From Pseudomonadales bacterium (lineage in GTDB: Bacteria > Patescibacteriota > Microgenomatia > UBA1400 > PJMF01): a DNA stretch of 64,000 nt. The stretch spans positions 18,905-82,904 of the forward strand of contig JACKFX010000002.1 of the NCBI GenBank assembly GCA_020632255.1, given 5' to 3'. This document shows, piece by piece, positions 2,182 to 45,042 of this stretch (positions are counted from its first letter, which is position 1; each line of letters opens with the position of its first letter). A program made the position numbers and the translations under genes. The notes beneath the pieces are model-generated. The model saw only the letters and a program-made list of their open reading frames with translations. It searched no databases and had not been told where the DNA came from.

Positions 2182-3303
2182 ATGAAAAAATTGAACAAGA
2201 CATTTCTACTTCCACTTATTGTGCTTATTGTTGCTCTGACCGTGTTACCTGTCCTGTCGTATCCCGCATTTTTCTTACAACCCACCAACATTTCTTCTTA
2301 TGGTCAGCTGTACGCCAACTCACAATATGTTGTAGGCGAAGCTACAAAGCAGCGGATAGACGATGCAACCATCTATATTTACGCAGGCTATGCCTACATA
2401 AAAGGGGAGGATCCCACTTCAATAAACTTCGAACATCCTCCACTTGGCAAATACGTACTTGGCCTCTCCTATGTTTTGTTTGAAAACTCACTAATCCTTA
2501 ATGTAGTTATCTACGCAGCGTTTTTAGGTGTTTTTGCATCATTGGCAAGGATTTTTACAAAAAACAACTGGCTTATTTTAGGATCAGTCCTTTTCTTAGG
2601 TACTACTCGACTGATCTATGTCAACGTGGGGCAGGGGATGCTAGACATTTTTTCGGCACTTCTCTTGTTAAGTACGTTTAGAGTTCTCTTCTCTTCTCTT
2701 CCTTCGTTGAAAAAATACATTTTTGCAGGGTTTCTTGTGGGAGCACTGGCTGCAACAAAATATCCTTTTCCATCAATTGCACTTCCAATCTTCTTACTAC
2801 TAGCATGGGCCTTCACACAAAAGGAGCTCATAAAAGGTCTCATCTCTTTACCAGTTATTGCTCTCACTTACCTGGGTAGTTATAGTGTTTATTTTTTACA
2901 TCATTCACTAACAGACTTCATTGCATTTGAATGGTTTAGACTCAAATGGTGGATTGTTGATCGAAATATTCCCCCGTTCCTCATTTTTCAAACACTTTTT
3001 TTTGGTGCCTTCAGGGACTGGAGAGACCTTCACATAGTGCGTTCTGCGGTGTGGTCTTTCAGCCTCCCTGTGCTATTTGTGTCGCAGTATGTTTCATTTC
3101 TGTTTACCAAGTTTGATATGAAATTGGTGGCTGTTCTTGGATACTCTACAACTCAAATAGTGCTGTATGGGCTAGGAGCTGCATCATACGATCGATATCT
3201 AATTTCGCTTATTCCACTCTGGCTACTTGTTTTTGTAGCTGGAATAGATCAATACAACAGCAAAAAAAACTATTTTTCTTTGCTTAAAAAAAGATTTACA
3301 TAA
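2182..3303 (+). CDS. GT-C membrane glycosyltransferase (PMT_2-like; HPPLGK motif)
   Basis: Signal/TM N-terminus and the ...EHPPLGKYVLGLSYVLF... motif diagnostic of the PMT/ArnT GT-C superfamily, in a multi-TM protein. Confidence 0.65.
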   Translation: MKKLNKTFLLPLIVLIVALTVLPVLSYPAFFLQPTNISSYGQLYANSQYVVGEATKQRIDDATIYIYAGYAYIKGEDPTSINFEHPPLGKYVLGLSYVLFENSLILNVVIYAAFLGVFASLARIFTKNNWLILGSVLFLGTTRLIYVNVGQGMLDIFSALLLLSTFRVLFSSLPSLKKYIFAGFLVGALAATKYPFPSIALPIFLLLAWAFTQKELIKGLISLPVIALTYLGSYSVYFLHHSLTDFIAFEWFRLKWWIVDRNIPPFLIFQTLFFGAFRDWRDLHIVRSAVWSFSLPVLFVSQYVSFLFTKFDMKLVAVLGYSTTQIVLYGLGAASYDRYLISLIPLWLLVFVAGIDQYNSKKNYFSLLKKRFT

Positions 3304-32452: not shown

Positions 32453-34120
32453 ATGGATATCTTTATTGAGCTCAGCTTAATTATTACCATCACTACCCTG
32501 GTTGCATTCATCATGAAGCAACTCAAACAACCATTAGTGGTTGGCTATATTTTGAGTGGTTTGCTGTTAGGTCCAATGTTTTTAAATATCTTGCACTCGA
32601 CAGAAGTCATTGAAATTTTCTCCAAACTTGGCATCTCCATATTGCTCTTTATAGTTGGTCTTCACATGAGTCCTCGGGTTATTAAAGAAGTCGGGTCTGT
32701 TTCATTAGTAACGGGTATTGGCCAAGTGCTGTTTACTTCTTTAGTTGGATTTGGAATTGCTATTTTCTTGGGACTAACCACAACAGCTGCCTTGTACGTT
32801 TCCATTGCGCTTACATTTAGCAGTACTATCATTATCCTCAAACTGCTCTCGGATAAAAATGAAGTTCATAGCTTGTATGGAAAAATTGCCGTCGGACTAC
32901 TATTAGTGCAAGACGTCATTGCCACATTGATTTTAATTGTGGTTTCTTCGATTGCAGGCGCTGAAGGAACTTCAGTTCCCTTTGTACTGTTAACAACCCT
33001 TCTCAAAGGTGGTTTTATTGTGATTGTTATAACCCTGCTTGAAAGGTTACTGCTTCCCAAACTCTTAAAATCTGCCTCAGATAACTCAGAGCTACTATTT
33101 ATTTTTTCGCTCACATGGGGACTGGGCTTTGCCGCACTTTTCTATGCACTTGGTCTATCTGTTGAAATTGGGGCCCTCATTAGCGGTGTTGTCCTTTCAT
33201 CCTCTCCCTATGCCGAAGAAATAAGCTCACGCCTCCGCCCTCTTCGTGATTTTTTCATTGTGATGTTCTTCGTGCTACTTGGTTCAACTATGACTTTCAC
33301 TGCAGGAACTAGCATTTTGGTCCCTGTTATAGTCTTGTCTCTCTTTGTACTGGTGGGAAATCCTATTATTGTGATTCTCATCATGAACTTGCTTGGATAC
33401 CACAAAAAAACTGGCTTCCAAACCGGTCTCACTGTTGCTCAAATTAGTGAGTTTAGTCTGATTTTGGCCACGCTAGGCTTCAATATTGGCCATATCGATA
33501 CTCAAGTCTTGACTATTATTACTTTGGTTGGCTTAATAACTATCGCTGGCTCTACCTATTTAATTCTTTACTCCGAAGCCATTTATACCCATATTGAAAA
33601 ATACCTGAGATTCCTTGAACTACGTAAAAACAATCAAGCCGCTACCGGAAAATACGCTAAAGTAGATAGCTTTATTTTTGGCTTCAACCGAGTTGGAGAT
33701 ACTTTTATGGATATCTTTAAGGAAATGGGCTACTCAGTTGGTGTAGTTGATTTTGACCCAAATACACTGGATCGTTTACCAAAAACTGGAGTTAAATACT
33801 ATTATGGTGATGCACAGGATGTTGAATTTTTAAGCGAATTACCCTTAAGTACAATTAAATTTGTGGTCTCATCAATCAAAGATGTTGAAACCAATGCAAC
33901 CTTAGTAAAACATCTTCGTGATCACACCAATCACCCCATTATCATCGTCTTTGCCGAAACACCCGAGGACGCTCAAACACTCTATGACGTTGGTAGCAGC
34001 TACGTTGTGTTACCTCACTTTATTGGGGCAGAATCGACAGCTTCATTTATTCGCCGTGTAGGATATTCAAAAAAGAGTTTCACCCGTAAACGTGAGCAAA
34101 TCCTCAAGGAGTGGGCTTAA
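32453..34120 (+). CDS. cation:proton antiporter (CPA2/KefB-like) with C-terminal RCK/TrkA-N domain
   Basis: About 12 TM helices of the Na_H_exchanger type, then a soluble domain with the ..IFGFNRVG.. Rossmann-like motif. Confidence 0.8.
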   Translation: MDIFIELSLIITITTLVAFIMKQLKQPLVVGYILSGLLLGPMFLNILHSTEVIEIFSKLGISILLFIVGLHMSPRVIKEVGSVSLVTGIGQVLFTSLVGFGIAIFLGLTTTAALYVSIALTFSSTIIILKLLSDKNEVHSLYGKIAVGLLLVQDVIATLILIVVSSIAGAEGTSVPFVLLTTLLKGGFIVIVITLLERLLLPKLLKSASDNSELLFIFSLTWGLGFAALFYALGLSVEIGALISGVVLSSSPYAEEISSRLRPLRDFFIVMFFVLLGSTMTFTAGTSILVPVIVLSLFVLVGNPIIVILIMNLLGYHKKTGFQTGLTVAQISEFSLILATLGFNIGHIDTQVLTIITLVGLITIAGSTYLILYSEAIYTHIEKYLRFLELRKNNQAATGKYAKVDSFIFGFNRVGDTFMDIFKEMGYSVGVVDFDPNTLDRLPKTGVKYYYGDAQDVEFLSELPLSTIKFVVSSIKDVETNATLVKHLRDHTNHPIIIVFAETPEDAQTLYDVGSSYVVLPHFIGAESTASFIRRVGYSKKSFTRKREQILKEWA

Positions 34121-34182: not shown

Positions 34183-34253
34183 TCCCGAATAGTGAAGTGG
34201 CATCACAGCAGTTTCTGGCACTGCTATCCTAGGTTCGAATCCTAGTTCGGGAT
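34183..34253 (+). tRNA. tRNA-Gln (anticodon CUG)
   Basis: Hand fold: acceptor stem TCCCGAA/TTCGGGA (7 bp, U1-A72), D stem GTGA/TCAC, anticodon stem GCAGT/ACTGC with loop TTCTGGC (U33, anticodon CTG, G37), T stem CTAGG/CCTAG with loop TTCGAAT. No encoded CCA. Confidence 0.8.
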
Positions 34254-34308
34254 CACTTCAAGACTCTAACTAGGACGGTTGAAACCTCAAGTCTGCTATA
34301 ATTTAAAC

Positions 34309-34944
34309 ATGGATATAGAAAAATTTCAGAAACTTGATTCAAAAAGAGCTAGCAATATTTCATTAAGCAATCAACATAGTTTATCAGGAGGTGTAGAGGG
34401 TGCCGTTTCTCATGGCACCGCACGTCTTCATAAAAACGAATCTAGTCGTATCGTTGGCTCCATGATAACTAAAAAAATTACTGTTGTAGCAGAACTTCCT
34501 GAAACAAGCTATACAGAAATTCGTAAAAAGCACTCTTGGCTAAAAAAAAGAGGCTTCCCTGTCGTCCCAACAATTCGTATTAATGAAAAACATACTACAT
34601 TACTAATGACAGATGTAACTCAAGGTGGCAGACTCATTCTTATTGATAAACATACACCGCTTTCAAAACAAAATATAGAAATATTAAATTTAGAGCTGAT
34701 ACATAGTCAGTTGCGAGCAATGGCGCTCAGCTCATTTAATGAAGGTAATGGTGTTGTTCTTGGATCAGATAGCTTTGCACTAGTGTACGATCCTTACAAT
34801 AAAATAGCTGAGATTATTCTTGTGGATATTGGTAGAGGTACATATATTGTCGGAAATTATAAAGCCAAAGGACGAAAGCATGATATCTCCGAAAACCTAG
34901 TTAAAAGACTTGCTGAACACGCTATTAAAACCCACTTCAGTTAA
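34309..34944 (+). CDS. hypothetical small protein-kinase-like fold protein (Bud32/RIO/Kdo-kinase-sized)
   Basis: 212 aa with a Gly-rich loop LSGGVEGAVSHG, a catalytic-loop-like DSFALVYDPYN and a DFG-like LVDIGRG. Assignment from motif spacing only. Confidence 0.45.
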   Translation: MDIEKFQKLDSKRASNISLSNQHSLSGGVEGAVSHGTARLHKNESSRIVGSMITKKITVVAELPETSYTEIRKKHSWLKKRGFPVVPTIRINEKHTTLLMTDVTQGGRLILIDKHTPLSKQNIEILNLELIHSQLRAMALSSFNEGNGVVLGSDSFALVYDPYNKIAEIILVDIGRGTYIVGNYKAKGRKHDISENLVKRLAEHAIKTHFS

Positions 34945-34960
34945 TTTGCTATCATAAATA

Positions 34961-35022
34961 GAGGTTCCAACATAATACACCAGTGTGATCACCTCAAGAC
35001 TCTAACTAGGACGGTCAGAACC
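34961..35022 (+). repeat. composite intergenic repeat (R-a + R-b) between cassette ORFs
   Basis: R-a (GAGGTTCCAACATAATACACCAGTGTGATCA) recurs at about 35271-35301, 35746-35777 and, degenerate, 37263-37290. R-b (CCTCAAGACTCTAACTAGGACGGTCAGAACC) recurs at about 34254-34286 immediately after the tRNA. The unit ends are inverted (AGGTTC...GAACCT). Confidence 0.55.
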
Positions 35023-35043
35023 TATCTGATATACTTCTAATAT

Positions 35044-35271
35044 ATGAAAAAAGTTATTTTATTATCCGTATTAATCTTAATACTATTAGCTAGCTACATA
35101 TCATATAGAATTTCAAAATCTAAGACTGAATGCCCTCTAAATTGTAATTTGCAATTTGACAGTGACATATGTAAAGAAGGTCAAATAGGCTGCGCATATG
35201 ATGCCTGTATAGCACAATGCGATTTAACTTGCATACACATTCCATTAGTTAAAGATGTTGTGTGCTTTTAA
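35044..35271 (+). CDS. small secreted cysteine-rich protein (signal peptide + roughly 48-aa 8-Cys domain)
   Basis: MKKVILLSVLILILLASYISY (signal/TM) followed by ...ECPLNCNLQFDSDICKEGQIGCAYDACIAQCDLTCIHIPLVKDVVCF. Flanked on both sides by R-a repeats. Confidence 0.45.
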   Translation: MKKVILLSVLILILLASYISYRISKSKTECPLNCNLQFDSDICKEGQIGCAYDACIAQCDLTCIHIPLVKDVVCF

Positions 35272-35337
35272 GGTTCCAACATAGTACACCAGTGTGATCA
35301 TTTTTAAATATATCTGTATATATAAATCTAATGTTTA

Positions 35338-35727
35338 TTAACCTTGATAGGGCTCAGCTACGATTAGAGCGATCTCATCTACTATGATATAGTTATCGTA
35401 AGGATTATTGTTATCAAGTAATCCCATGCCACTTAACTCTTGTAAAAGATCTTGTAAAAATTTCTCTGAACTTGGTGATGACGGATTTGATGCTGAAAAT
35501 AATGACATAGCTGTTTGAGTTCCTATCAGGATTGATTTTCTTTTTTCAATTTCGCTATCTTGATACTTATGCCCATAAGCTATATCTAAAGATCTTTTAG
35601 CTCTTTCTAATTCCATAACAAGACGTAAAAATCCCCAGCCCTTTTCTGATCTAATAATTGTTTCTGAGGTCTTTAGAATAAATTCTAAAAGTGTTGGTGT
35701 TTGAGAAACTTTTTCTTTTGTAGACAT
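35338..35727 (-). CDS. hypothetical protein
   Basis: 129-aa ORF on the opposite strand inside the islet. Confidence 0.35.
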   Translation of the reverse strand: MSTKEKVSQTPTLLEFILKTSETIIRSEKGWGFLRLVMELERAKRSLDIAYGHKYQDSEIEKRKSILIGTQTAMSLFSASNPSSPSSEKFLQDLLQELSGMGLLDNNNPYDNYIIVDEIALIVAEPYQG

Positions 35728-35912
35728 TCTCGAATTATGTCATATAGAGGTTCTAACATCGCATAATAGTGTAATCAGTCCAAATATAGCTTTATATATC
35801 AATCTATTTTTCTACATACTTTTATATCACAGTAGTTCGGTTCAATTTCTAGTTTGGAACAGGTTCTGAAATGATATAATTGTAAGATTAAATTTTGATT
35901 GGACAAATTATT

Positions 35913-36530
35913 ATGAAAAATAAAAAAGAAATTTTAAACGTCCCAAGTTTAAGAGTAGAAGTTTGGAGCCCAAATCTTACTCAAAGTCAAATAGATAAAA
36001 TTAAATTACCTTTTAGATTACCATTGGTTTTAACAGATGAAGTGATGAATGATATTAGAAGAATGTCTGAAATGGATACAGATGAATTTGGAAATAGATA
36101 TGGAATGAATTATAATGAAGCAGCGGAATACGTAGTTTATAATTTAAACTCTGTTGTTTGTGTATTAAGAGATGAAATGACTGGTGTAATAGAAGGATTT
36201 ACGATAGCAATACCAGCACGTGATGCATACCAATACAACGACGTTTATTCTGATCGTACTCATGAAAATAACATTGCTTATGTTGTTTCTACAGTAATTG
36301 ACCCAAAGTTAAGAGGACTAAAATTGGTAGGCAAATTAATGCAAAAATTAGAGAAAACGTTGAAATCAAAAGGGTATCGGTTTATAGATAGAGATGCAAG
36401 GGATGTGGACCTCGATGGACTTGGAAGTTATGCGGATAAGATCATAAAAAATGCTGGTAAAAAAGTTGTTATTAATCAGAAATTCGATACGCCACTTGGT
36501 CCTCAAAGATATATACGAACTAGAATTTAG
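35913..36530 (+). CDS. GNAT-family acetyltransferase-like protein
   Basis: ...YVVSTVIDPKLRGLKLVGKLMQKLEKTLKSKGYRFI fits GNAT motif A (R-x-x-G-x-G/A). ATG at 35913 preferred over the TTG at 35895. Its stop overlaps a TAGTTCGGG copy of the tRNA-derived core. Confidence 0.45.
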   Translation: MKNKKEILNVPSLRVEVWSPNLTQSQIDKIKLPFRLPLVLTDEVMNDIRRMSEMDTDEFGNRYGMNYNEAAEYVVYNLNSVVCVLRDEMTGVIEGFTIAIPARDAYQYNDVYSDRTHENNIAYVVSTVIDPKLRGLKLVGKLMQKLEKTLKSKGYRFIDRDARDVDLDGLGSYADKIIKNAGKKVVINQKFDTPLGPQRYIRTRI

Positions 36531-36561
36531 TTCGGGTTTGTAGGTAAACATTTACAATAAT

Positions 36562-36591
36562 AGGTTCGAATAGCGTCTACGTACGGGATCA
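36562..36591 (+). repeat. degenerate tRNA-3'-end-like repeat R5 (second copy at about 37306-37336)
   Basis: AGGTTCGAATAGCGTCTACGTACGGGATCA versus GGGTTCAAATACTGCTCACGTACGGGATTTA share a T-loop-like GGTTCRAAT and ACGTACGGGAT. Confidence 0.5.
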
Positions 36592-36860
36592 TACAAAAAA
36601 TATACCCATTAGGGTATTTTTTGTAAATTCTGGATCGTAGGTGCGAAGAGTCGTGCCAGCAAGAAGTGAGCGCCTGCAAACTTCCTGCTTAGTGCATGCG
36701 AGCTTCCTTACGTAGATGAAAAATTGCAGCGAGTCGTGAATCCTAGTTCGGGATCTTATGAAATATAAATTTATATATCAATCTAATTTATATATTTCCA
36801 AATTTTCATTTTTTATATATAATTGTATACATTTAGTAAAAATGTGAGAGAGATTAATAT

Positions 36861-37253
36861 ATGGACAACGAAGAAAGAACTGAATTTAGTTTTATCGAAA
36901 CTTTGCAAAATATTCTTCCAAAGGATTTCATATGTCAAGTGGCTTTTAAAACAAGCGACCATCATGGATATCAAGGCAATAGAACTGAAGTTGCTCTTAC
37001 AGAACGAGCTATTATTGCATTTAAATTAGATCCTTTAGGAGAGATAGAATCAGACTATCCAGGGTATTCTGCAACACGATTGGAATATTTGGTAATTGCA
37101 CCTCAAGAAAATGATTTGAACTCATTAGCAAGAGTAGTTGAGAAAAGGAATGAATCATCTGCTGCTGGCGGAGGAGTGCATCTTTATGTTGTTGGCAAAA
37201 TTGATCAGAGCGGTAATTTCACTGCTATAAATGATGGTGAGGTTTTATACTAG
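36861..37253 (+). CDS. hypothetical protein
   Basis: 130-aa ORF followed by an R-a-like repeat. Confidence 0.35.
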   Translation: MDNEERTEFSFIETLQNILPKDFICQVAFKTSDHHGYQGNRTEVALTERAIIAFKLDPLGEIESDYPGYSATRLEYLVIAPQENDLNSLARVVEKRNESSAAGGGVHLYVVGKIDQSGNFTAINDGEVLY

Positions 37254-37444
37254 CCTTTTTCAAAGTTCAACATTATAAACCATTATTACAATTCACTCAA
37301 GGAGTGGGTTCAAATACTGCTCACGTACGGGATTTAATAATATTTATAATTGATGTATCAATATAATATTCAAAAGTACTTCATATTACTGTTGAAAAAA
37401 GTCCATTCTGGTAAGACGTTTCGACCTGTTATACTTTTTGTACT

Positions 37445-37654
37445 ATGGACGTATCTAAATTATTAGCATCACATAAAATAGTATTTGAAAAATTAAATCT
37501 CCAAGCCCCCGAGCTATTGGGTAATGGTATGGAGGGTTTTGTATATACTGTGTCGGACAATAAAATTTTAAAAATATGGAGAGATACTCATTGTAAACGA
37601 AATCATCTATCAGAGAGAAAAAAATTATACGAAATTGTCGGAAAACAACTTTGA
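37445..37654 (+). pseudogene. truncated paralog (N-terminal about 69 aa) of the kinase-like gene at 34309..34944
   Basis: MDVSKLL...LGNGMEGFVYTV..ILKIW aligns with MDIEKFQ...LSGGVEGAVSHG of the intact copy. The ORF stops after the beta3-lysine region. Confidence 0.35.
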
Positions 37655-37838
37655 AGTTTTTCTGGAAAATACTCAGCTGGGATCACAGGTTCTGTATCGA
37701 ACATATTCTCATCATACGTAACTACAGTGCATAAAACAACTCTATGCTTTTTGCTTAAGGAAGTTCTATCCATCAGTTCTCGTCTAAACAAACCAAGCTC
37801 CCACTTTTCAGAGTTCCAATTTTTGATACTATACCAGT

Positions 37839-38894
37839 ATGCCTGAGAGATTTAATCCAAGTATTCGCAGCATACTAGATCAGGCTTCTAAAAGTCCAGA
37901 GAGTTTAGAAGATATCATTCGTTTTCTGTTAAAAGTTGAGGCTTATGAGTATGGCTCAACACTTGAAACAAAACGACAAGTCGCCGAAGCTCTAAAATTA
38001 CTTCCCATTCCTGAGTCACTTCTTGATGAGGTTGAACTGTATATCCTCTATCTTAAAAGATACGAGCGAACACAACCACTCTTTGATCCAACCTGTATCA
38101 CTCATGAGAATGGCTACTATATTGGAGGCATTCCACTTTTTGATGCTCACGGCACCTATATTTTCCGACCTAACTACTCAGGAGAAATTATTGGTCGATC
38201 TGGAAAACACTATGAAGTAAGATGTTTTCCAAATTCAGTTGAAATCAAAAACAAAGGTAGAATCACACAGATGTCAGACATACCCGGATACTTTAAATTA
38301 AAAAAAGATGACTGGTACGCTCAAGCTATTGTAGAAAAAGAGTCACCAGATGGTTCAAAAAAGGACCACAATATCTTTTTTGGTCGCCTGCTTCAATACC
38401 TAACAGATACCTATCCTTTTGCAATGGGACCCATTACCCATTTTAGAGCAGAATGGGGTCGAGGCACCAATCATGATACCTATGAAGAATACCGTACACA
38501 GTTAGAAGAAATCGCGAAACCATTTTATACATTTCCATCAAATGTAGATGAATTAGGAAAACAACTGACACCATACATACAAGGAACACCGTTAATGGGT
38601 ATCGATCTTGAATCATATTTCCGGGAATTACGTGCTATTGAACTTCAAAGAAGAAAACAAAAAATTGAAGCTGGCTGGGACTATGATCTTGATCCTCAAG
38701 TCATTCACCATAATGCAGTGCTCGAATTTTGTGCTGAAATTGCTGCTTGGAAAACACCAACAGGCAAAGCATTACAAACAAAACTTGGTTTTTCACACAT
38801 GCACTCTTTTCCTTTACTGATGTTTTCTCGGGATGTAAGTGTCGCATTGGAAAGAGAAAGAAGACTAAAAACACTCGAATCTTTGACACCGTAA
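37839..38894 (+). CDS. hypothetical protein (351 aa)
   Basis: No recognisable family. First gene of a co-directional unit ending in dinB. Confidence 0.4.
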   Translation: MPERFNPSIRSILDQASKSPESLEDIIRFLLKVEAYEYGSTLETKRQVAEALKLLPIPESLLDEVELYILYLKRYERTQPLFDPTCITHENGYYIGGIPLFDAHGTYIFRPNYSGEIIGRSGKHYEVRCFPNSVEIKNKGRITQMSDIPGYFKLKKDDWYAQAIVEKESPDGSKKDHNIFFGRLLQYLTDTYPFAMGPITHFRAEWGRGTNHDTYEEYRTQLEEIAKPFYTFPSNVDELGKQLTPYIQGTPLMGIDLESYFRELRAIELQRRKQKIEAGWDYDLDPQVIHHNAVLEFCAEIAAWKTPTGKALQTKLGFSHMHSFPLLMFSRDVSVALERERRLKTLESLTP

Positions 38895-38940
38895 ATGTTA
38901 ACTATGGAAACATCTTTACTATCAGTATAATACTTTCAAT

Positions 38941-40008
38941 ATGCATGTAAAAAAAAATCTGGAATACCAGCCACGACATAGATCACAGTTTGATATTCTC
39001 AACCACTACCGAAATCGTTTAGATGCGCTTTCCCCAGACAAAAAAGCAAGAATTAAACCAATCTCAATCCTTGAAGGAGATAGCCCTGTTCGAGGTTTTA
39101 GAATTCAGCTCTCAAATCCTGAATCTCCTAAAAAAGGTCTCATCACCGATTGGGACGATACTCTCGAAAATTATTCAAGTCGTAAAGCCCCATACTTTCA
39201 AGCACTCTATAAGCGTTGTGCTACCACAAAATTATCACCTGTCGATTTTACAGCTATGTGTAAGGCTCTTAACCGTGCTGGTCGGGTCCTTAATTGGCAA
39301 GACATTCATCCAGAATCCTACTCACCTTTCTTAGAAATGCTGGCTGAAACACAGCTCATTGATGACCTTACTTCTGGTGTTGATGATGAAACATTTTTAA
39401 ACTTCCTACAAGTCCCTTCAGAAGCACTTGCTCGCACCTATTTACTGGAAAAAGTTATACCTCTTCTTGGGGATATGGTCACTCCAAAACATAAAGGTGA
39501 AAAAACATATTTTGCAGAAACTCATCACCAATCACTTGCTCATACTCTTGAAGAAAAACACCCACTCATTGCAGATGATGTTTGGGATGCTTATCAGCAA
39601 CATATGACCAGACCGAATCTTTCAAAAGCAAATATAGCTCTATTTGACCTTGATCCTTCAGTTTATTGGGCAATTTCAACATTTGGTGCCATCGAGTTCC
39701 AAGCAAAAAAAATTATTAGCTCCCTAGAACTGCTTAAAGCTCAAGGAAAACGTATTCCCGATGAAATCATGATTATTACTCATGGTAGAAAACAACAAGC
39801 ACTCCTCCAAATTATGGATGAGCATCCAGAAACTGAATGGACCTATGTGGATGATAGTGAACGCCAGCTTGCTTCTCTCCATGAGGAACGTCCACAAATA
39901 CATGCTATCTGTGCTAAACTTTCTGGCACAAAACGTGTAGATGAACCTTCCAATTACCCCACCACCGAAATGACCGATCCCCTTTCAATGCTGATTAACT
40001 CTGTTTGA
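38941..40008 (+). CDS. HAD-superfamily hydrolase-like protein
   Basis: GLITDWDDTL matches HAD motif I (hhhhDxDxT[LV]) and a later VDDSER resembles motif IV. Large cap insertion. Confidence 0.4.
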   Translation: MHVKKNLEYQPRHRSQFDILNHYRNRLDALSPDKKARIKPISILEGDSPVRGFRIQLSNPESPKKGLITDWDDTLENYSSRKAPYFQALYKRCATTKLSPVDFTAMCKALNRAGRVLNWQDIHPESYSPFLEMLAETQLIDDLTSGVDDETFLNFLQVPSEALARTYLLEKVIPLLGDMVTPKHKGEKTYFAETHHQSLAHTLEEKHPLIADDVWDAYQQHMTRPNLSKANIALFDLDPSVYWAISTFGAIEFQAKKIISSLELLKAQGKRIPDEIMIITHGRKQQALLQIMDEHPETEWTYVDDSERQLASLHEERPQIHAICAKLSGTKRVDEPSNYPTTEMTDPLSMLINSV

Positions 40009-40059
40009 TATCTTTGGACATATTGACGAGTTCGGGTTTGCTTAGTGTAGTATGGAGAC

Positions 40060-40305
40060 ATGTACCAAACAATTAACGAAACAATTGCCGTTGTGGGCAC
40101 CTATAAAGATGGCATGTTTGTGCCTCGAAAATTTAAGTGGCGAGAGAGAATTATGCCTGTTGATACTATTACCCTCGTTAATGATACCCGAGATGGTGTT
40201 CGCAAGAAACGCTTGTATAGTTTGGTTTCGAAAGGAACCGTATTTCGCCTAGAGTTTGACCGTGATAATGAGCATTGGTTATTATTAGAACTCTGGGTTG
40301 AGTAA
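40060..40305 (+). CDS. hypothetical small protein, translationally coupled to dinB
   Basis: 81 aa. Its stop TAA (40303-40305) is 1 nt before the dinB ATG. Confidence 0.4.
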   Translation: MYQTINETIAVVGTYKDGMFVPRKFKWRERIMPVDTITLVNDTRDGVRKKRLYSLVSKGTVFRLEFDRDNEHWLLLELWVE

Positions 40306-40306
40306 T

Positions 40307-41539
40307 ATGGAACGAACTATCCTGCATGTAGACATTAATTCCTATTTTGCTACTATGTTGCAGCAAGAAAATCCACACTTACGTGGTAAACCCATTGGGG
40401 TCGTTAAAGATGAAGGTCGCACATGCCTTATTGCTCTGAGCAAAGAAGCCAAACAGTTTGGTATCGAAACCGGTGCTCGCAAACAAGAAGCCTTGACTCT
40501 CTGTCCCCAATTGCTCTGCCTTCCCGCCAGTTTTGAGCGATACCTTGATGCCACCAAACGTCTTCAAAAAGTTTTTTTAACTGTTGCGCCCTCTGTCTAC
40601 ATTTACTCTCTTGACGAGGCCTTTATTGACGTTACCGACTGCCGAGAACATCTCTATCCCGATTTAGAAAAGCTTGGTAAAACTATCCAAGACCGCATTA
40701 AAACAGAACTGGGAGAGTGGGTTACCTGTAATATTGGCATTGCCAACAATCGCTTCATGGCAAAAATGGCTAGTGAAGTTGCCCCCAAAGGAGGGGTGAG
40801 TATTGTTACTCCCGATAAAAAAGAACTAATTCTGGCGACCACCCCATTCAAAGATGTCTGTGGCATTGGCTACCGCCTCAGTAAAAAATTAGCTCGTTGT
40901 AATGTCTTTTACCCCTACCAAATTCGTTTTATTCCAGAAGAGGAGCTACATACTCTTTTTGGCCCGTTTTGGAGTGTCCAGCTAGCTAAAATGGCCTACG
41001 GAGAAGAACCTCATCTCTTGCAACAGATTGATCGAGAGATCCCTCATATGAAAAGTGTTGGCCGCTCGATTACCGGATACCATCTGTATCAAAACCCTAC
41101 AGAAATTAAGCGCATTCTGCATAACCTCTCTATCGAAATCATTGAAAAAGTGCGCATTCAAAAATTGGCGGGTCGAAACATTTGGATTGGCCTGTATGGC
41201 CAAGAAGGGTACTGGTCTGCACATCTCACCATAGCAACACCCATTAATCAAGTGTTTGAGCTTATCAATCGGGTAGACCACCTCTACAAACAATGGAATC
41301 ACTCTTTCGAGGTCATTAAGTTTGCTGTCCGGCTCTCGCTGTTAGAACCACATCAGCAAGACCAACTGTTGCCATCCTGGCAGAAGCACGAGTCTATTCA
41401 ACGAGCTTTAGATACCATTAATACTAAGTTTGGCCGCTTTACTGCCCGACCAGCTGCAGTACCTCCTCAAAAAGAACTTATTTATCCTGAAGTGACTGGA
41501 TTTCTGGGAGATAAGCTCTATCAACTTCGCAATGAATAA
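40307..41539 (+). CDS. dinB: DNA polymerase IV (Y-family)
   Basis: ILHVDINSYFATM... and ...SLDEAFIDVT, the Y-family palm motifs. Start at the ATG at 40307 (MERTILHVD) rather than the TTG at 40298. Confidence 0.85.
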   Translation: MERTILHVDINSYFATMLQQENPHLRGKPIGVVKDEGRTCLIALSKEAKQFGIETGARKQEALTLCPQLLCLPASFERYLDATKRLQKVFLTVAPSVYIYSLDEAFIDVTDCREHLYPDLEKLGKTIQDRIKTELGEWVTCNIGIANNRFMAKMASEVAPKGGVSIVTPDKKELILATTPFKDVCGIGYRLSKKLARCNVFYPYQIRFIPEEELHTLFGPFWSVQLAKMAYGEEPHLLQQIDREIPHMKSVGRSITGYHLYQNPTEIKRILHNLSIEIIEKVRIQKLAGRNIWIGLYGQEGYWSAHLTIATPINQVFELINRVDHLYKQWNHSFEVIKFAVRLSLLEPHQQDQLLPSWQKHESIQRALDTINTKFGRFTARPAAVPPQKELIYPEVTGFLGDKLYQLRNE

Positions 41540-41725
41540 TATCCCATAACTTGCTATTTGGGTGCAACTATGCTATACTATACATTCTGTTGAAAAGCCA
41601 AAGAGCTTTACAACTTGGTTTAAGCTAGAAACTTTGTAAGAATATTTCTCAATACCTATTATTCGCTTCTTGTCTTTTACCCCTAGGCTAACTACTAGTG
41701 ATATTTCGTAGTAAACCTAGTATTA

Positions 41726-42979
41726 ATGAAGAAAAAGAAAGAAGTATCTATGAGCAGACAACGCTCTCATCGTCATAGACGATCAAACAACAATTCATTT
41801 AGTAACGCTGGTGGACAACAAGCACAGAGTTCTCATCCTCGTGGCAATCGCAACGGGAATAGAATAAAGTACTTTGATCCAACTTCAGTTATTTTGCAGT
41901 CTCAGACAGAAACGCAACAAATTGTGGAAAATGACGTCTACGAGAACAGAAACAACTTTGTCGATTTTGAGATCTCACCAGAACTCAAGCGAAACATTGC
42001 TGACCGCGGCTATAAAACACCAACTCCAATTCAAGATCAGGTCATTCCTCATATCTTAAAGGGGAAAGACGTGGTGGGTATCGCTAATACGGGGACCGGA
42101 AAAACTGCAGCCTTTTTGATTCCATTGATTGAAAAGATTATCCAGAATCCTGAAGAAAAAGTTTTAATCATTGCCCCAACTCGTGAGTTGGCTGTGCAAA
42201 TTCGAGATGAACTTAAACTCTTCATTACCGGGATAAACATCTACTCTACCCTTACCATTGGAGGGACATCTTTAAACCGTCAAATTGAGCATCTTAAACG
42301 CGGACAAAGCTTCGTGATCGGAACTCCTGGGCGAATTAAAGATCTTAACGAACGTCGAAAGTTACCATTTGATCAGTTTGGCACTATCGTGTTGGATGAA
42401 GTCGACCGTATGCTCGACATGGGCTTCATCCATGATATTAAGCGTATTATTAGCTTGCTGCCAGCTGTAAGAACATCATTATTTTTCTCGGCCACCATGA
42501 CACCCATTGTTCAAGAAGTAATGAATGACTTTTTACATGATCCTATCTTTGTCTCTGTGAAAACACAAGAAACATCAACCAATGTTATTCAAAATGTCAT
42601 TAAAATGAATGGTCGATCTAAGCTTGATGTGCTCCACGAGCTACTTCAAGGAGACTCATTTGAAAAAGTCTTAGTGTTCCACAGAACCAAGCATGCTGCA
42701 AACAAACTTGCACAAAAACTCACTCAACGTGGAATTAAGGCAAACGCTATTCATGGAAACAAATCTCAGAATCAACGCCAGCGCGCATTGGATGAATTCA
42801 AAAAGAACTACGTCAAAGTGTTAATTGCTACCGACGTGGTCGCTCGAGGCGTTGACATTAAAAATGTCACTCATGTGATCAACTATGACTTCCCTGAATC
42901 ATACGAAAGCTATGTCCATCGCATCGGCCGCACTGGTCGTGCAGATAGTAAAGGTGTTGCACTAACGTTTGTAGAGTAA
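41726..42979 (+). CDS. DEAD-box ATP-dependent RNA helicase
   Basis: Q-motif ..TPTPIQ, GTGKTAAF (motif I), DEVDRMLDMGF (DEAD variant DEVD), SAT, HRIGRTGR. Arg/Ser-rich N-terminal extension. Confidence 0.85.
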   Translation: MKKKKEVSMSRQRSHRHRRSNNNSFSNAGGQQAQSSHPRGNRNGNRIKYFDPTSVILQSQTETQQIVENDVYENRNNFVDFEISPELKRNIADRGYKTPTPIQDQVIPHILKGKDVVGIANTGTGKTAAFLIPLIEKIIQNPEEKVLIIAPTRELAVQIRDELKLFITGINIYSTLTIGGTSLNRQIEHLKRGQSFVIGTPGRIKDLNERRKLPFDQFGTIVLDEVDRMLDMGFIHDIKRIISLLPAVRTSLFFSATMTPIVQEVMNDFLHDPIFVSVKTQETSTNVIQNVIKMNGRSKLDVLHELLQGDSFEKVLVFHRTKHAANKLAQKLTQRGIKANAIHGNKSQNQRQRALDEFKKNYVKVLIATDVVARGVDIKNVTHVINYDFPESYESYVHRIGRTGRADSKGVALTFVE

Positions 42980-42981
42980 GA

Positions 42982-44739
42982 CTAATAAATAGTAGTTTCC
43001 TCAATATATGTTGTCGATGCGGCATCACTCGCGGGCAGATAGAAGATAATCATACCTTTACGGAAAAAATTACCCGTTTGATCACCTACAGAAATGTAGT
43101 GCCATTGACCATCATCTCTAACGGCTAAAATGAGGTCTCTATACAGGTGTATGTTTTGATCAGTCACATGCTGAACATGCAAAAGTTGTTCTGTCATGAT
43201 GCCATCATCCACAAATGCATAGAGCTCATCACCAAAAGTAACTCTTTCATAGGTGGTTTCTAGTAATTTTCTGTACAACGGCGTTTCAATGATAAAATCT
43301 GGTTTACTCAAATAATTTTTTTCAGCATCAATCCGTGGATCGAGCCAAAGAGCTGAATTACTAAATACTGTTGTCGCAAGATTTCCTGCATGGTATGGAT
43401 ACAGTATATGCAGCGGTTTACCTTTTGGATTGAGATTGTATGCTTTTTTTTCAAGCAAGTACTCTAACCCTAAAGCATCATAGTACTGCATGTCAAAGAT
43501 TATTTCACTCACTTCACCTTGAGTTACTAGTTCATCAATAGATTGAACAATCGCATCCTGATTTTTAATTTCGAGGTTGAGCGGATGCATATTCGAAAAA
43601 AGCAGAAAAAAGACATACACTGCAGTAAAGAGGATAAAAATAATTTTTTTCTGTAAAGCTGACAACAGTGTCCCTAAAACACTCGCAAGAATATAAAAAA
43701 TTGCAGGCAGTTGCACGAAGTAGTAATACTCTGGTGTCTGTCCACTATATAAAGAAAAACAAACTGCTATACCCAAAATCCAGAAAAATGAAAGCTGAAA
43801 CAACTTTTTTTCTTTTTCTGTAATCTTTTTATAAAGAAGTAAGGTGGTCAAAACTACCACTACCCCAGCAATCAAAATGAGTTCGAGAGAATTTCCTTCC
43901 AATAAAACACCGCCCAGGTTTTCTAGAGAAATTTGCATCGCGTGTAGAAGTGTAGTAAAAAAACCTACTAGACCAAACCCGGTCTTTCCTTCCAACAGAC
44001 TTAACAGTCCCCTTGTATTTAAATAATTATTTTTTATGTCAAAAAGCACTGTGGGCAGAAGTGAGGCAAGAAAGCCTACAAAAAGGGCCCCGTATAACCA
44101 TACGTTTTTATACCTACGCACCACTAAATAGATACAAGCAAGTGGAGCTAAAATGAGTCCAGAAAAATGTGCTTGATACCCTAAAAACGCCCCAACAAAG
44201 AGCAAGAACTCAGTTGGGATGTGTTTTCCAAACAATTGATATCTGTATTTTCTCTCTAATGCTAACAGAGGAAAAAATGTCAGACTACTTGCAAGAACAG
44301 TCAGATTTGGATTCCATAAAATTCTATCCATTGGAATCAGGAGTGGTGAAAATGCCCAAAGAGCAAGTATAAGGTGTTGTTCTCTTTCTACTACTTTTGT
44401 TAACCATGCTAGAGTTATCCCAGTAAGCAACGCTAAAAAAAGCGGTACAAAAATTGCTGTGTAGTGTGAAAATCCGAGAAAAAGAAACGGAGCCGCAACA
44501 TAATAGATGAGTGGCCCAGTAAACATTTCTGCCGGACCAGTTCTTGGCCCTAAAAAAACCAGGTCACCTTCAACAATTTTTTCTGCACTGGTTATAATTT
44601 GGAGATTATCAAACCCCAGTGGATAGTAACCAAATTTATATGCCCTAAGAAAAAGTCCAACCGCGACAATTAGAATGAGAATGATGCTGTTTTGTATTTT
44701 TTCAGGAATGCTTATCATTATCTTGAGTATAGCAAACAA
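42982..44739 (-). CDS. integral membrane GT-C-like glycosyltransferase (ArnT/PMT-related)
   Basis: About 12 TM helices with a conserved first-loop region (..LGFDNLQIITSAEKIVEGDLVFLGPRTGPAEMFTGPLIYY..) similar to the ORF at 51121..52686. Confidence 0.5.
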   Translation of the reverse strand: MFAILKIMISIPEKIQNSIILILIVAVGLFLRAYKFGYYPLGFDNLQIITSAEKIVEGDLVFLGPRTGPAEMFTGPLIYYVAAPFLFLGFSHYTAIFVPLFLALLTGITLAWLTKVVEREQHLILALWAFSPLLIPMDRILWNPNLTVLASSLTFFPLLALERKYRYQLFGKHIPTEFLLFVGAFLGYQAHFSGLILAPLACIYLVVRRYKNVWLYGALFVGFLASLLPTVLFDIKNNYLNTRGLLSLLEGKTGFGLVGFFTTLLHAMQISLENLGGVLLEGNSLELILIAGVVVVLTTLLLYKKITEKEKKLFQLSFFWILGIAVCFSLYSGQTPEYYYFVQLPAIFYILASVLGTLLSALQKKIIFILFTAVYVFFLLFSNMHPLNLEIKNQDAIVQSIDELVTQGEVSEIIFDMQYYDALGLEYLLEKKAYNLNPKGKPLHILYPYHAGNLATTVFSNSALWLDPRIDAEKNYLSKPDFIIETPLYRKLLETTYERVTFGDELYAFVDDGIMTEQLLHVQHVTDQNIHLYRDLILAVRDDGQWHYISVGDQTGNFFRKGMIIFYLPASDAASTTYIEETTIY

Positions 44740-45042
44740 TTACAAAAGACCATAAACTACTTTTTACCCTATAACTTGAAGTTACATTAAAAAATGATAT
44801 GGTCAAAAGTATCTGTGTACGAAGAAGGAATTGATAAATCAAAATAAATTAACCAAAAATCAAAAACAACTCTTACTAGACTTCAAAAAAACTCTCGAGT
44901 GCTACTAGAAAAAAAACAAACTCCAATCAATGTAGTCAAAAAAACGCACTCAAGAAGAAAATGGGAATGATTGGCAAAAGAATACAATAATTAGAGCATC
45001 TCGACCCTTACCTATCTGGTCTGAAACAAGTATACTACATAG

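Follow-up and report, generated by a model that had tools for sequence, protein, structure and literature searches.

A tRNA-Gln gene of a Dojkabacteria-like bacterium carries an islet of single-gene units that may have grown by serial insertion at the tRNA 3' end

To our knowledge, how the ultra-small genomes of the Candidate Phyla Radiation (CPR, Patescibacteria) acquire and shed genes is little understood; the mobile elements known from them are few. Cis-mobilizable elements (CIMEs) and accretion arrays beside the integrative and conjugative elements (ICEs) of Streptococcus consist of att-flanked DNA in tandem that lacks an integrase; a recombinase acting in trans is presumed to mobilise it. 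The locus described here lies within 64 kb of contig JACKFX010000002.1 (the whole of this stretch is referred to as the window, and L-numbers are labels of related loci and contigs compared with it). Directly 3' of a tRNA-Gln(CUG) gene, 3.6 kb of AT-rich DNA carries five small open reading frames (ORFs) and several families of short repeats. The arrangement is read here, with somewhat better than even confidence, as an additive genomic islet at the tRNA-Gln(CUG) 3' end of a Dojkabacteria-like CPR bacterium, formed by serial accretion of integrase-less mini-elements. The locus is a variant of the tandem-island theme anchored at tRNA or transfer-messenger RNA (tmRNA) genes, in a lineage where such islands have hardly been described; a literature search on integrases and tRNA genomic islands in Patescibacteria returned nothing relevant. 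It combines strain-level gene turnover and single-nucleotide breakpoints at a tRNA with units the size of integron cassettes, without integron sites or a visible recombinase.

In Dehalococcoides, a bacterium with a small genome, islands are inserted in tandem at ssrA and are bounded by 3'-end direct repeats of ~20 bp with the crossover midway through the T-loop (PMC3146451). A 15-bp conserved motif lies upstream of each ssrA repeat, 16 islands of 10-30 kb carry a CcrB-like serine recombinase module, and some ssrA islands without an integration module are viewed as cis-mobilizable or accreted (PMC3146451). Similarly, the present locus has tandem units 3' of one tRNA-like gene, 3'-end repeats and a conserved sequence just upstream of the repeat. 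Unlike the Dehalococcoides islands, however, no recombinase is seen, the units are single genes of 0.3-0.8 kb, most internal sites belong to a distinct 30-nt T-arm-like family (R-a and R5, described below) rather than being copies of the tRNA end, and a structured element of 86 nt, in place of a 15-bp motif, lies upstream of the repeat.

In the tycheposon islands of Prochlorococcus, successive integrations at tRNAs displace older elements and leave partial tRNAs behind (Hackl et al., bioRxiv 10.1101/2020.12.28.424599). What defines tycheposons is that they carry recombinases of their own, of the tyrosine or large serine type, along with replication modules (bioRxiv 10.1101/2020.12.28.424599). 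The present locus resembles these islands in being tRNA-anchored and hypervariable, in a streamlined genome, with scattered partial tRNAs and degenerate remnants. It differs in its far smaller cargo units and its CPR host, and no recombinase of the tycheposon type or replication module was found in the window ORFs searched. As in CIMEs, integrase-less units with att-like flanks stand in tandem at a specific site and their mobilisation is presumed; unlike in CIMEs, no helper element was identified and the sites are heterogeneous (tRNA end, R-a and R5). Thus, the locus departs from its precedents in unit size, in the non-tRNA central part of R-a and R5, in having no recombinase in the searched ORFs and in the structured element beside the repeat. 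Of the features of a tRNA-targeting island, the intact tRNA with its 3' repeat and the deviating composition are present, but no element-encoded integrase was found in the window or in the larger ORFs searched from the islands of six relatives. Tandem units with att-like flanks and no recombinase, as in a cis-mobilizable or accretion array, are also present.

The anchor and the segment behind it are as follows.

34183-34253/34254, + strand: tRNA-Gln(CUG), intact, CCA not encoded; anchor of the island (ARAGORN; Rfam tRNA, 59 bits)
34255-37838: AT-rich segment, G+C 0.33

The initial annotation had described an intact tRNA-Gln(CUG) followed by an AT-rich segment of five small ORFs, and ARAGORN, Rfam and the G+C profile agree; this is the sole tRNA gene in the window by the first two. 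The G+C of 0.33 stands against 0.41 upstream and 0.39-0.41 downstream, so that the segment is foreign-looking in composition and differs from the core genome, in support of the horizontal origin proposed earlier. Five independent assemblies carry the same arrangement at 99.98-100% identity, and a sixth, from a near strain, at 98.6%; it is therefore not an assembly artefact.

By the Na+/H+ exchanger gene upstream of the tRNA, the window belongs to CPR/Patescibacteria; one contig with 100% identity carries the label Candidatus Dojkabacteria. Relatives keep the order of this exchanger gene followed by tRNA-Gln(CUG), and the content that follows differs.

L109: exchanger 91% identical; 0.22 kb after the tRNA, then corA
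L005/L115: exchanger 83% identical (closest species representative); 8 kb of unrelated genes before DUF6504-dinB
L110-113: exchanger 79% identical; 0.3 kb with only a hairpin and an X-like element (element X is described below), then corA
L117: exchanger 77% identical; 2 kb of other small genes before DUF6504-dinB-DEAD-corA
L008: exchanger 73% identical; tRNA directly abuts a homologue of the window's 351-aa gene (37839-38894)
L007: exchanger 63% identical; one unknown gene after the tRNA, then corA

corA follows the tRNA at a distance of 0.22 kb (L109), ~0.3 kb (L110), 1 kb (L007), 5.8 kb (L008), 6.3 kb (L117) or, in the window, 10.8 kb. The interval from the tRNA to dinB and the gene content of the island differ in every species examined, which answers the question raised earlier whether this region is variable. 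The comparison that had been proposed, for a genome in which the tRNA lies against the 37.8-kb side, found L008, where the 351-aa gene homologue follows the tRNA directly (an R-a-like sequence is located after this gene); in L109 and L110 the tRNA abuts corA.

The breakpoints of these differences coincide. Comparison with L005, L008 and L109, and of L117 with L118, places the recombination point at the last bases of the tRNA, ...CGGGATCA (to 34255). The exchanger proteins of L117 and L118 are identical and their DNA is 99.57% identical over 2340 nt; the similarity ends from the base after ...GCGCGGGATCA (...GGGATCA), one nt past the tRNA. In the window, 2337 bp (34255-36591) are extra with respect to L005, exactly between GGGATCA and a hairpin, with a copy of R5 at the right junction. 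Presence/absence polymorphism with a breakpoint at the tRNA end was found for L109, L110 and L008 and within the L117/L118 pair. In addition, the Logan contig L004, from the window's own species, terminates exactly at 34254, which is compatible with a branch of the assembly graph at the tRNA end. Taken from alignments of related loci, these breakpoints support the tRNA 3' end as a repeated, exact insertion point, and the iterated insertion that the initial annotation had suspected there is borne out by the L117/L118, L005, L008 and L109 comparisons.

A larger difference is superimposed on this pattern. The 10.8 kb from the tRNA to corA in the window (34255-45042), which hold the 351-aa gene, a 355-aa gene, DUF6504-dinB, a DEAD-box helicase gene and the gene of a 585-aa membrane protein, are missing from the closest relatives L109 and L110. 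As DUF6504-dinB-DEAD is present in L117 and L005, the absence of this part from L109 and L110 probably reflects loss or relocation.

Every junction within the islet consists of a left arm (tRNA end, R-a or R5) followed by a right arm (R-b, D1 or a hairpin leading into element X). The repeats, all on the + strand, are the following.

34251-34287: R-b copy 1, right arm directly 3' of the tRNA
34962-34991: R-a1, 30-nt T-arm-like left arm ending in GTGATCA
34987-35023: R-b copy 2, 89% identical to copy 1
35271-35300: R-a2, 97% identical to R-a1
35301-35338: D1a, AT-rich right arm of family D1
35748-35777: R-a3, 73% identical to R-a1
35777-35814: D1b, family D1
35833-35840: short partial copy of the tRNA 3' end, TAGTTCGG
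36528-36536: another such short copy, TAGTTCGGG, which overlaps the stop codon of the GNAT gene
36562-36591: R5-1, left arm in the 30-nt frame of R-a
36738-36755: exact 18-nt copy of the tRNA 3' end, GAATCCTAGTTCGGGATC (tRNA positions 57-74)
36756-36793: D1c, family D1
37262-37293: R-a4, degenerate, ~70% identical with one gap in a by-eye alignment
37306-37335: R5-2

A repeat search confirmed the 18-nt copy, R-a, R-b, R5 and the short cores reported previously as real; D1, a family of 38 nt, lies directly 3' of R-a2, R-a3 and the 18-nt copy and is an addition to them. The 18-mer has two matches in the window, a number reached in none of 100 shuffles, and there are 6 occurrences of the 8-mer TAGTTCGG in the window where 1.0 would be expected, 4 of them on the + strand within 34243-36751. 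R-a and R5 had been taken for separate classes of repeat. Both are real, but they form a single 30-nt T-arm-like family in which the stretch running from GTTC to ATC or ATT measures exactly 27 nt in five copies. Their common form is RGGTTCNAAY, 12 nt and YGKGATYA, that is, the T-loop region of the tRNA and its last 8 nt around a different middle, with 5 nt more in length; R5-1 agrees fully with the tRNA in its first 10 nt (T-loop region) and in its last 8 nt (3' end).

Seven combinations of left and right arm are observed, and all switch within ~5 nt after ATCA. All nine R-a/R5 sites observed (six in the window, one in L008 and two in L103) are co-oriented with the tRNA regardless of the direction of the neighbouring gene, as are all tRNA 3' copies. 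R-a, D1 and R-b-like sequence are conserved in the tRNA-Gln islands of other species (L008, L103). In L103, an R-b-like sequence lies 3' of tRNA-Gln(TTG), and the same R-a/D1 junction as in the window (2794-2854), together with a second R-a, brackets a homologue of the first cassette gene beside tRNA-Gln(UUG), near an intact APH gene.

Within the 64-kb window, no copy of R-a, R-b, R5 or the 18-nt family occurs outside 34.2-37.4 kb; the copies share one orientation and lack a hairpin. Dispersed repetitive extragenic palindromic (REP) or miniature inverted-repeat transposable element (MITE) sequences, against which the earlier description had weighed its repeats, are therefore rejected as far as 64 kb can show.

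The genes between the arms, numbered as cassettes 1-4 and ORF5, are listed here.

34309-34944, + strand: cassette 1 (ORF1), 211 aa, conserved family without a domain match
35044-35271, + strand: cassette 2 (ORF2), 75 aa, hydrophobic N-terminus, Cys-rich
35338-35727, - strand: cassette 3 (ORF3), 129 aa, reversed
35913-36530, + strand: cassette 4 (ORF4), 205 aa, GNAT-like acetyltransferase (Pfam PF00583, E = 1.9e-4, a weak match)
36861-37253, + strand: ORF5, 130 aa, ORFan

Read from the tRNA outwards, the map is R-b, ORF1, R-a1; R-b, ORF2, R-a2; D1a, ORF3, R-a3; D1b, ORF4, R5-1; hairpin, X, tRNA 3' copy; and D1c, ORF5 and, further on, R5-2. This map is self-consistent, and the order of units fits a scheme of serial insertion without exception. 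In that scheme, the islet would be built by repeated site-specific insertion at one point, ...CGGGATCA|. Each unit would be tiny (0.3-0.8 kb, one gene) and would begin with an AT-rich, promoter-like right arm (R-b or D1), continue with its gene and close with a left arm of 30 nt, R-a or R5, that mimics the T-loop region (RGGTTCNAAY) and the end (..GATCA) of the tRNA. An incoming unit would recombine with the tRNA end, so that its right arm comes to adjoin the tRNA and its left arm precedes the earlier content. Since the left arm of a new unit would settle before what was already there, older units would be displaced outward, the newest would stand next to the tRNA and each left arm would abut the right arm of the previous unit. 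As the units encode no recombinase, the enzyme would act in trans, from the genome or a visiting element, or would have been lost. Deletions would subsequently erode the array. If the sites are active, the locus would offer a tractable system with known att-like sequences.

The 18-nt copy has a different setting from the other sites. It ends a conserved module of ~165 nt, in which a terminator hairpin is followed by element X and then by the tRNA 3' copy.

36592-36625, both strands: bidirectional terminator hairpin at the start of the module, terminator-like on both strands (folding z = -3.9)
36626-36737, + strand: element X, with a variable lead of ~26 nt and a conserved core of 86 nt (36652-36737)
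36738-36755, + strand: the 18-nt copy, tail of the module
Further copies of X: L005 11820-11928; L096 2045-2129; L097 5591-5675; L098 8671-8755 (- strand); L110 11845-11990

In L005, a sister species, the tRNA is followed by a terminator hairpin homologous to 36592-36625, a GC-rich stretch and its own tRNA 3' copy, 147 nt away. The two modules are 74% identical in the hairpin, 84% in the lead and 90% in the core; the next 60 nt are ~63% identical, the level expected of unrelated AT-rich sequence by the authors' estimate. Because 36592-36755 is homologous to a module that lies directly against the L005 tRNA, the window carries a 2337-bp insertion, and R5-1 is its right junction (~2.34 kb relative to L005). 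The initial annotation had taken the 18-nt copy for the att repeat that bounds the array; this has to be given up, as the copy is the tail of the hairpin-X module, which adjoins the tRNA in L005, and in the window cassettes 1-4 are inserted between tRNA and module. The tRNA-Gln genes of the window and L005 differ at a T-loop base and an acceptor pair, and in either case the 3' copy agrees with the tRNA carried by the same genome.

When metagenomes were scanned with the X core, the only finds were the sister species and two unrelated contigs. In the closed 1.19-Mb genome of the sister species, the core recurs behind tRNA-Gln(UUG), tRNA-Cys and tRNA-Asp, starting 60-72 nt after the tRNA and each time behind a different hairpin. 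The tails of these three copies start at tRNA position 57/58 and are perfect for Gln(UUG) but diverged beyond 7-11 nt for Cys and Asp. In all, six copies of X were found in three species, and matches to an X covariance model were confined to these, with nothing in ~1 Mb of other CPR and DPANN loci. Rfam 15 at E <= 10 gave nothing beyond chance-level hits, either on the region or on X alone. The X core and R-b had 0 hits against viral contigs, and an R-a 16-mer had 19, estimated to be at chance level.

The predicted structure of the X core comprises helices P0 and P1, an apical loop ACCU and an internal loop UUAGUGCA. RNAalifold detected no covariation among five near-invariant copies. The sixth, from L110, is divergent and has no tRNA-matching tail; it keeps the ACCU loop, a 1x1 A/C loop and the internal loop UAGURCAUG, and both its helices are changed compensatorily. 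With 17 pairs, 86% of cells are paired and 5 pairs are double-changed; 0 of 500 shuffles were as good, and slid controls reached 21-46%. A G-U pair invariant in 6 of 6 sequences favours reading X as a + strand RNA. Base pairing conserved by compensatory change is suggested and, since almost all of the covariation comes from one divergent sequence, is not conclusive. In its own right, element X is of interest as a candidate for a new family of tRNA-linked structured RNAs or hairpins.

Several observations stand beside the module. In L100 (9791-9901), tRNA-Gln is followed by a GC-rich spacer of ~95 nt unrelated to X, its own tRNA 3' copy starting from A58, and an ORF1 homologue. In L111 (11836-11935), a run of N lies exactly in the X-like element, which may reflect difficult assembly. 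On the minus strand of D1c (36753-36781), a promoter-like TTGATA-17-TAAGAT points into the strand complementary to X and the tRNA 3' copy, and may give rise to an antisense transcript whose 5' end is complementary to the tRNA 3' end.

Under serial accretion, the hairpin, X and tRNA copy would be an older mini-element of a second type, recombining in the T-loop (from position 57/58). It would have left a tRNA repeat of 18-22 nt (18 in the window) because its crossover lay there. In mycobacteriophage Ms6, integration is redirected to the T-loops of other tRNAs when the attP core is edited (PMC1762012). The repeats of the X module similarly run from T-loop position 57/58 to the tRNA end, as do the attP and attB cores of integrases of this class. 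Unlike Ms6, the present element (tRNA end, hairpin and X) spans just ~165 bp, carries no int gene and has a covarying hairpin as its conserved arm. Since Ms6 can be retargeted in this way, a similar change of core is a plausible route by which, by analogy, one X family could have come to lie behind four different tRNAs.

Several findings weigh against serial accretion. No recombinase was found in the window, either by a regular-expression scan for tyrosine-recombinase motifs in six-frame ORFs of at least 80 aa, which is a weak test, or by Pfam on unannotated ORFs, a part of the ORFs of the window; the earlier remark that none lies near the locus thus extends to the whole 64 kb. Nor did the larger ORFs screened from the islands of six relatives (L005, L007, L008, L100, L114 and L117) contain an integrase domain. 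For these two reasons, action in trans is purely inferential. For individual cassettes, neither circular nor empty-site junctions were found, nor was any strain found to differ by exactly one cassette. The linkage between arm and gene is not fixed, as the arm upstream of the ORF1 family is R-b in the window and D1 in L103. R-a is not the simple partial tRNA left by classical integration, because its central 12 nt differ and it is 5 nt longer. D1 and R-b resemble promoter regions, so that the repeats could partly be regulatory. Finally, compensatory changes in X between species fit a functional RNA better than an inert att flank.

A serious rival, albeit an unlikely one, builds on some of these same findings. 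The interval between the tRNA and dinB or corA would be a replacement-type flexible island, a homologous-recombination hotspot swapped by transformation through its conserved flanks, and R-a, R-b and D1 would be promoter, untranslated-region or operator modules. In its favour, neither the window nor the screened ORFs of the six relatives yielded an integrase, the D1 and R-b flanks are promoter-like with a conserved TGATATACTT-N6-7-ATG motif before several genes, and D1 with R-a lies upstream of the minus-strand genes ORF3 in the window and APH in L103. However, the breakpoints lie exactly at the last base of the tRNA and not within flanking genes, and R-a and R5 follow the orientation of the tRNA rather than that of the adjacent gene (9/9). 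R-a2|D1a precedes no co-oriented gene, and the tRNA 3' copies in four loci would be left unexplained.

A more far-reaching alternative is an undescribed form of cassette capture in the CPR bacteria of this clade. The 3' end of tRNA-Gln (CUG and UUG) would serve as acceptor, R-a and R5 would mark single-gene cassettes, the recombinase would be unlinked, and X would be a working component, such as an RNA or a DNA hairpin that marks or targets tRNAs, not a scar. On the sequence comparisons above, this is distinctly doubtful.

It is improbable that the locus is the decayed remnant of one larger prophage, ICE or integrative mobilizable element (IME) that integrated a single time at tRNA-Gln, was deprived of its integrase and had its content reshuffled by duplications and deletions within it. 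An intact tRNA with an 18-nt 3' repeat 2.5 kb away, low G+C and pseudogene fragments are what such an element would leave. In L005, however, a distance of only 147 nt separates the repeat and X from the tRNA and nothing intervenes, and the 2.3 kb are therefore a later insertion rather than the interior of an element delimited by the 18-mer. The presence of six more att-like sites, all in one orientation, also speaks against it, as does the absence of phage or plasmid genes and of viral relatives of ORF1, ORF3 and ORF4.

X and its tail might instead be an RNA guide, in which the scaffold is followed by 18-22 nt that match the 3' end of the neighbouring tRNA after GTTCR and direct an unlinked nuclease, transposase or recombinase, thereby making a landing pad. 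A structured, covarying scaffold on the + strand would suit this, as would a tail at a fixed distance from it in 5 copies and a scaffold start 60-72 nt from the tRNA end in the three further sister-species copies. The tail matches the tRNA of its locus fully at three tRNA-Gln loci and partly at tRNA-Cys and tRNA-Asp. Against this, no linked effector gene, such as one for TnpB, IscB or Cas12, was noticed in the window or at four sister-genome X loci (ORF listings inspected by eye, and Pfam on part of the ORFs, all from the window), and the L110 homologue has no tRNA-matching tail. In addition, the copies carry the genomic CA and not CCA, their identity extends beyond the tRNA end as an att duplication predicts, and two tails have diverged beyond 7-11 nt. 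A guide function is very unlikely on these grounds.

Integrons, and clusters of attC sites lacking integron-integrases (CALINs), also hold single-gene cassettes in series at a fixed anchor, with the newest presumably beside it, and can form arrays without an integrase. In an integron-like platform, the tRNA end would act as attI and R-a with R-b as attC hairpins recombined single-stranded by an IntI-type enzyme, an analogy raised earlier from the inverted termini AGGTTC...GAACCT of the R-a+R-b unit. R-a contains TCCAAC or TCTAAC, fitting the YYYAAC of the integron R'' box (RYYYAAC). Integron attC sites are imperfect hairpins of 55-140 nt that form in single-stranded DNA. The analogy fails in that no GTTRRRY partner (R') box was seen by eye in R-b or D1, and seven junctions on the top strand, three of them also on the bottom, folded as single-stranded DNA no better than shuffled sequences (z -1.3 to +0.8). 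Moreover, R-b is joined to a single one of the R-a copies, a tRNA serves as the anchor, promoter-like sequences accompany the individual genes, one of which is reversed, and the motif scan and Pfam search of the window revealed no IntI-type tyrosine recombinase. Without junction folds, an R' box or IntI, integron and CALIN models were rejected and are scarcely credible for this locus.

A second, degraded tRNA gene ending in the 18-nt match, which reproduces tRNA positions 57-74 exactly, is refuted for practical purposes, in agreement with the first reading of the sequence, since its upstream 110 nt are element X, conserved behind four different tRNAs, no tRNA was detected there by ARAGORN or by Rfam even at E <= 10, and a tRNA-like fold of X and tail was rejected as the variable lead, or 5' part, forms no consistent closing stem with the tail.

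Of the cargo carried by the islet, ORF1 has only 4 homologues in 5.8 billion proteins (54-62% identity), and these adjoin a tRNA-Gln gene wherever the flank is assembled (L100, L103 and L106). In L106 the flank consists of the tRNA 3' copy only, at the contig start, and the 91 nt upstream of the L105 homologue show no tRNA. ORF1 had no match in Pfam, NCBIfam, PADLOC, PHROG or PDB sequences, and the AlphaFold model of the family was unusable (predicted local distance difference test, pLDDT, 33). No family match was obtained for ORF2 in Pfam, NCBIfam, PADLOC or PHROGs, nor for ORF3 in these databases and in viral contigs. The ORF1 family, ORF3 and ORF4 have no relatives in viral contigs, and searches of PDB sequences with the cargo proteins were empty. 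ORF4 has 112 homologue clusters (best identity 53%), and ORF5 has a single homologue of 95% identity from a near strain. Weak GNAT and APH matches are the only indications of cargo function in Pfam, NCBIfam, PADLOC and PHROGs.

Beyond ORF5, two remnants were found.

37445-37654, + strand: 5' remnant of an APH-like gene (weak APH match), truncated by a deletion at ~37650
37603-37791, - strand: gene fragment (..EPVIPAEYFPEKL..), related by eye to the N-terminus of an ORF of the L005 island

In strain L104, the APH-like gene runs >400 nt beyond 37650, where similarity to the window stops, and an intact APH gene is present in the L103 island. The first island ORF of L117 is a peptidase fragment. 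Erosion of the islands is thus visible, as judged from these truncated genes.

An extended -10-like motif (TGNTATACT or TGCTATAAT) lies, by eye, 6-8 nt before the ATG of many genes of the locus. Its sites are 34294-34311, 35027-35046, 37424-37447 and 37818-37841 in the window, 9985-10003 in L100 and 3014-3032 in L103. The recurrence of the motif so close to the ATG suggests that island genes may be transcribed as leaderless mRNAs.

The last 18 nt of the exchanger gene (CTCAAGGAGTGGGCTTAA, 34103-34120) recur at 16 of 18 positions at 37296-37313, overlapping the start of R5-2 (family D12), at a frequency estimated to be near chance (~0.2 expected in an all-against-all comparison). The tRNA-Gln gene encodes ...U73-CA, not CCA, in the window (34253-34256), L005, L109 and L117; it is followed by CCA in L110 and L114 and by CC only in L008. 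The acceptor stem of this tRNA-Gln also differs markedly among close species, reading TTCGGGA, TCCGGGA, GCACGGGA or GCGCGGGA.

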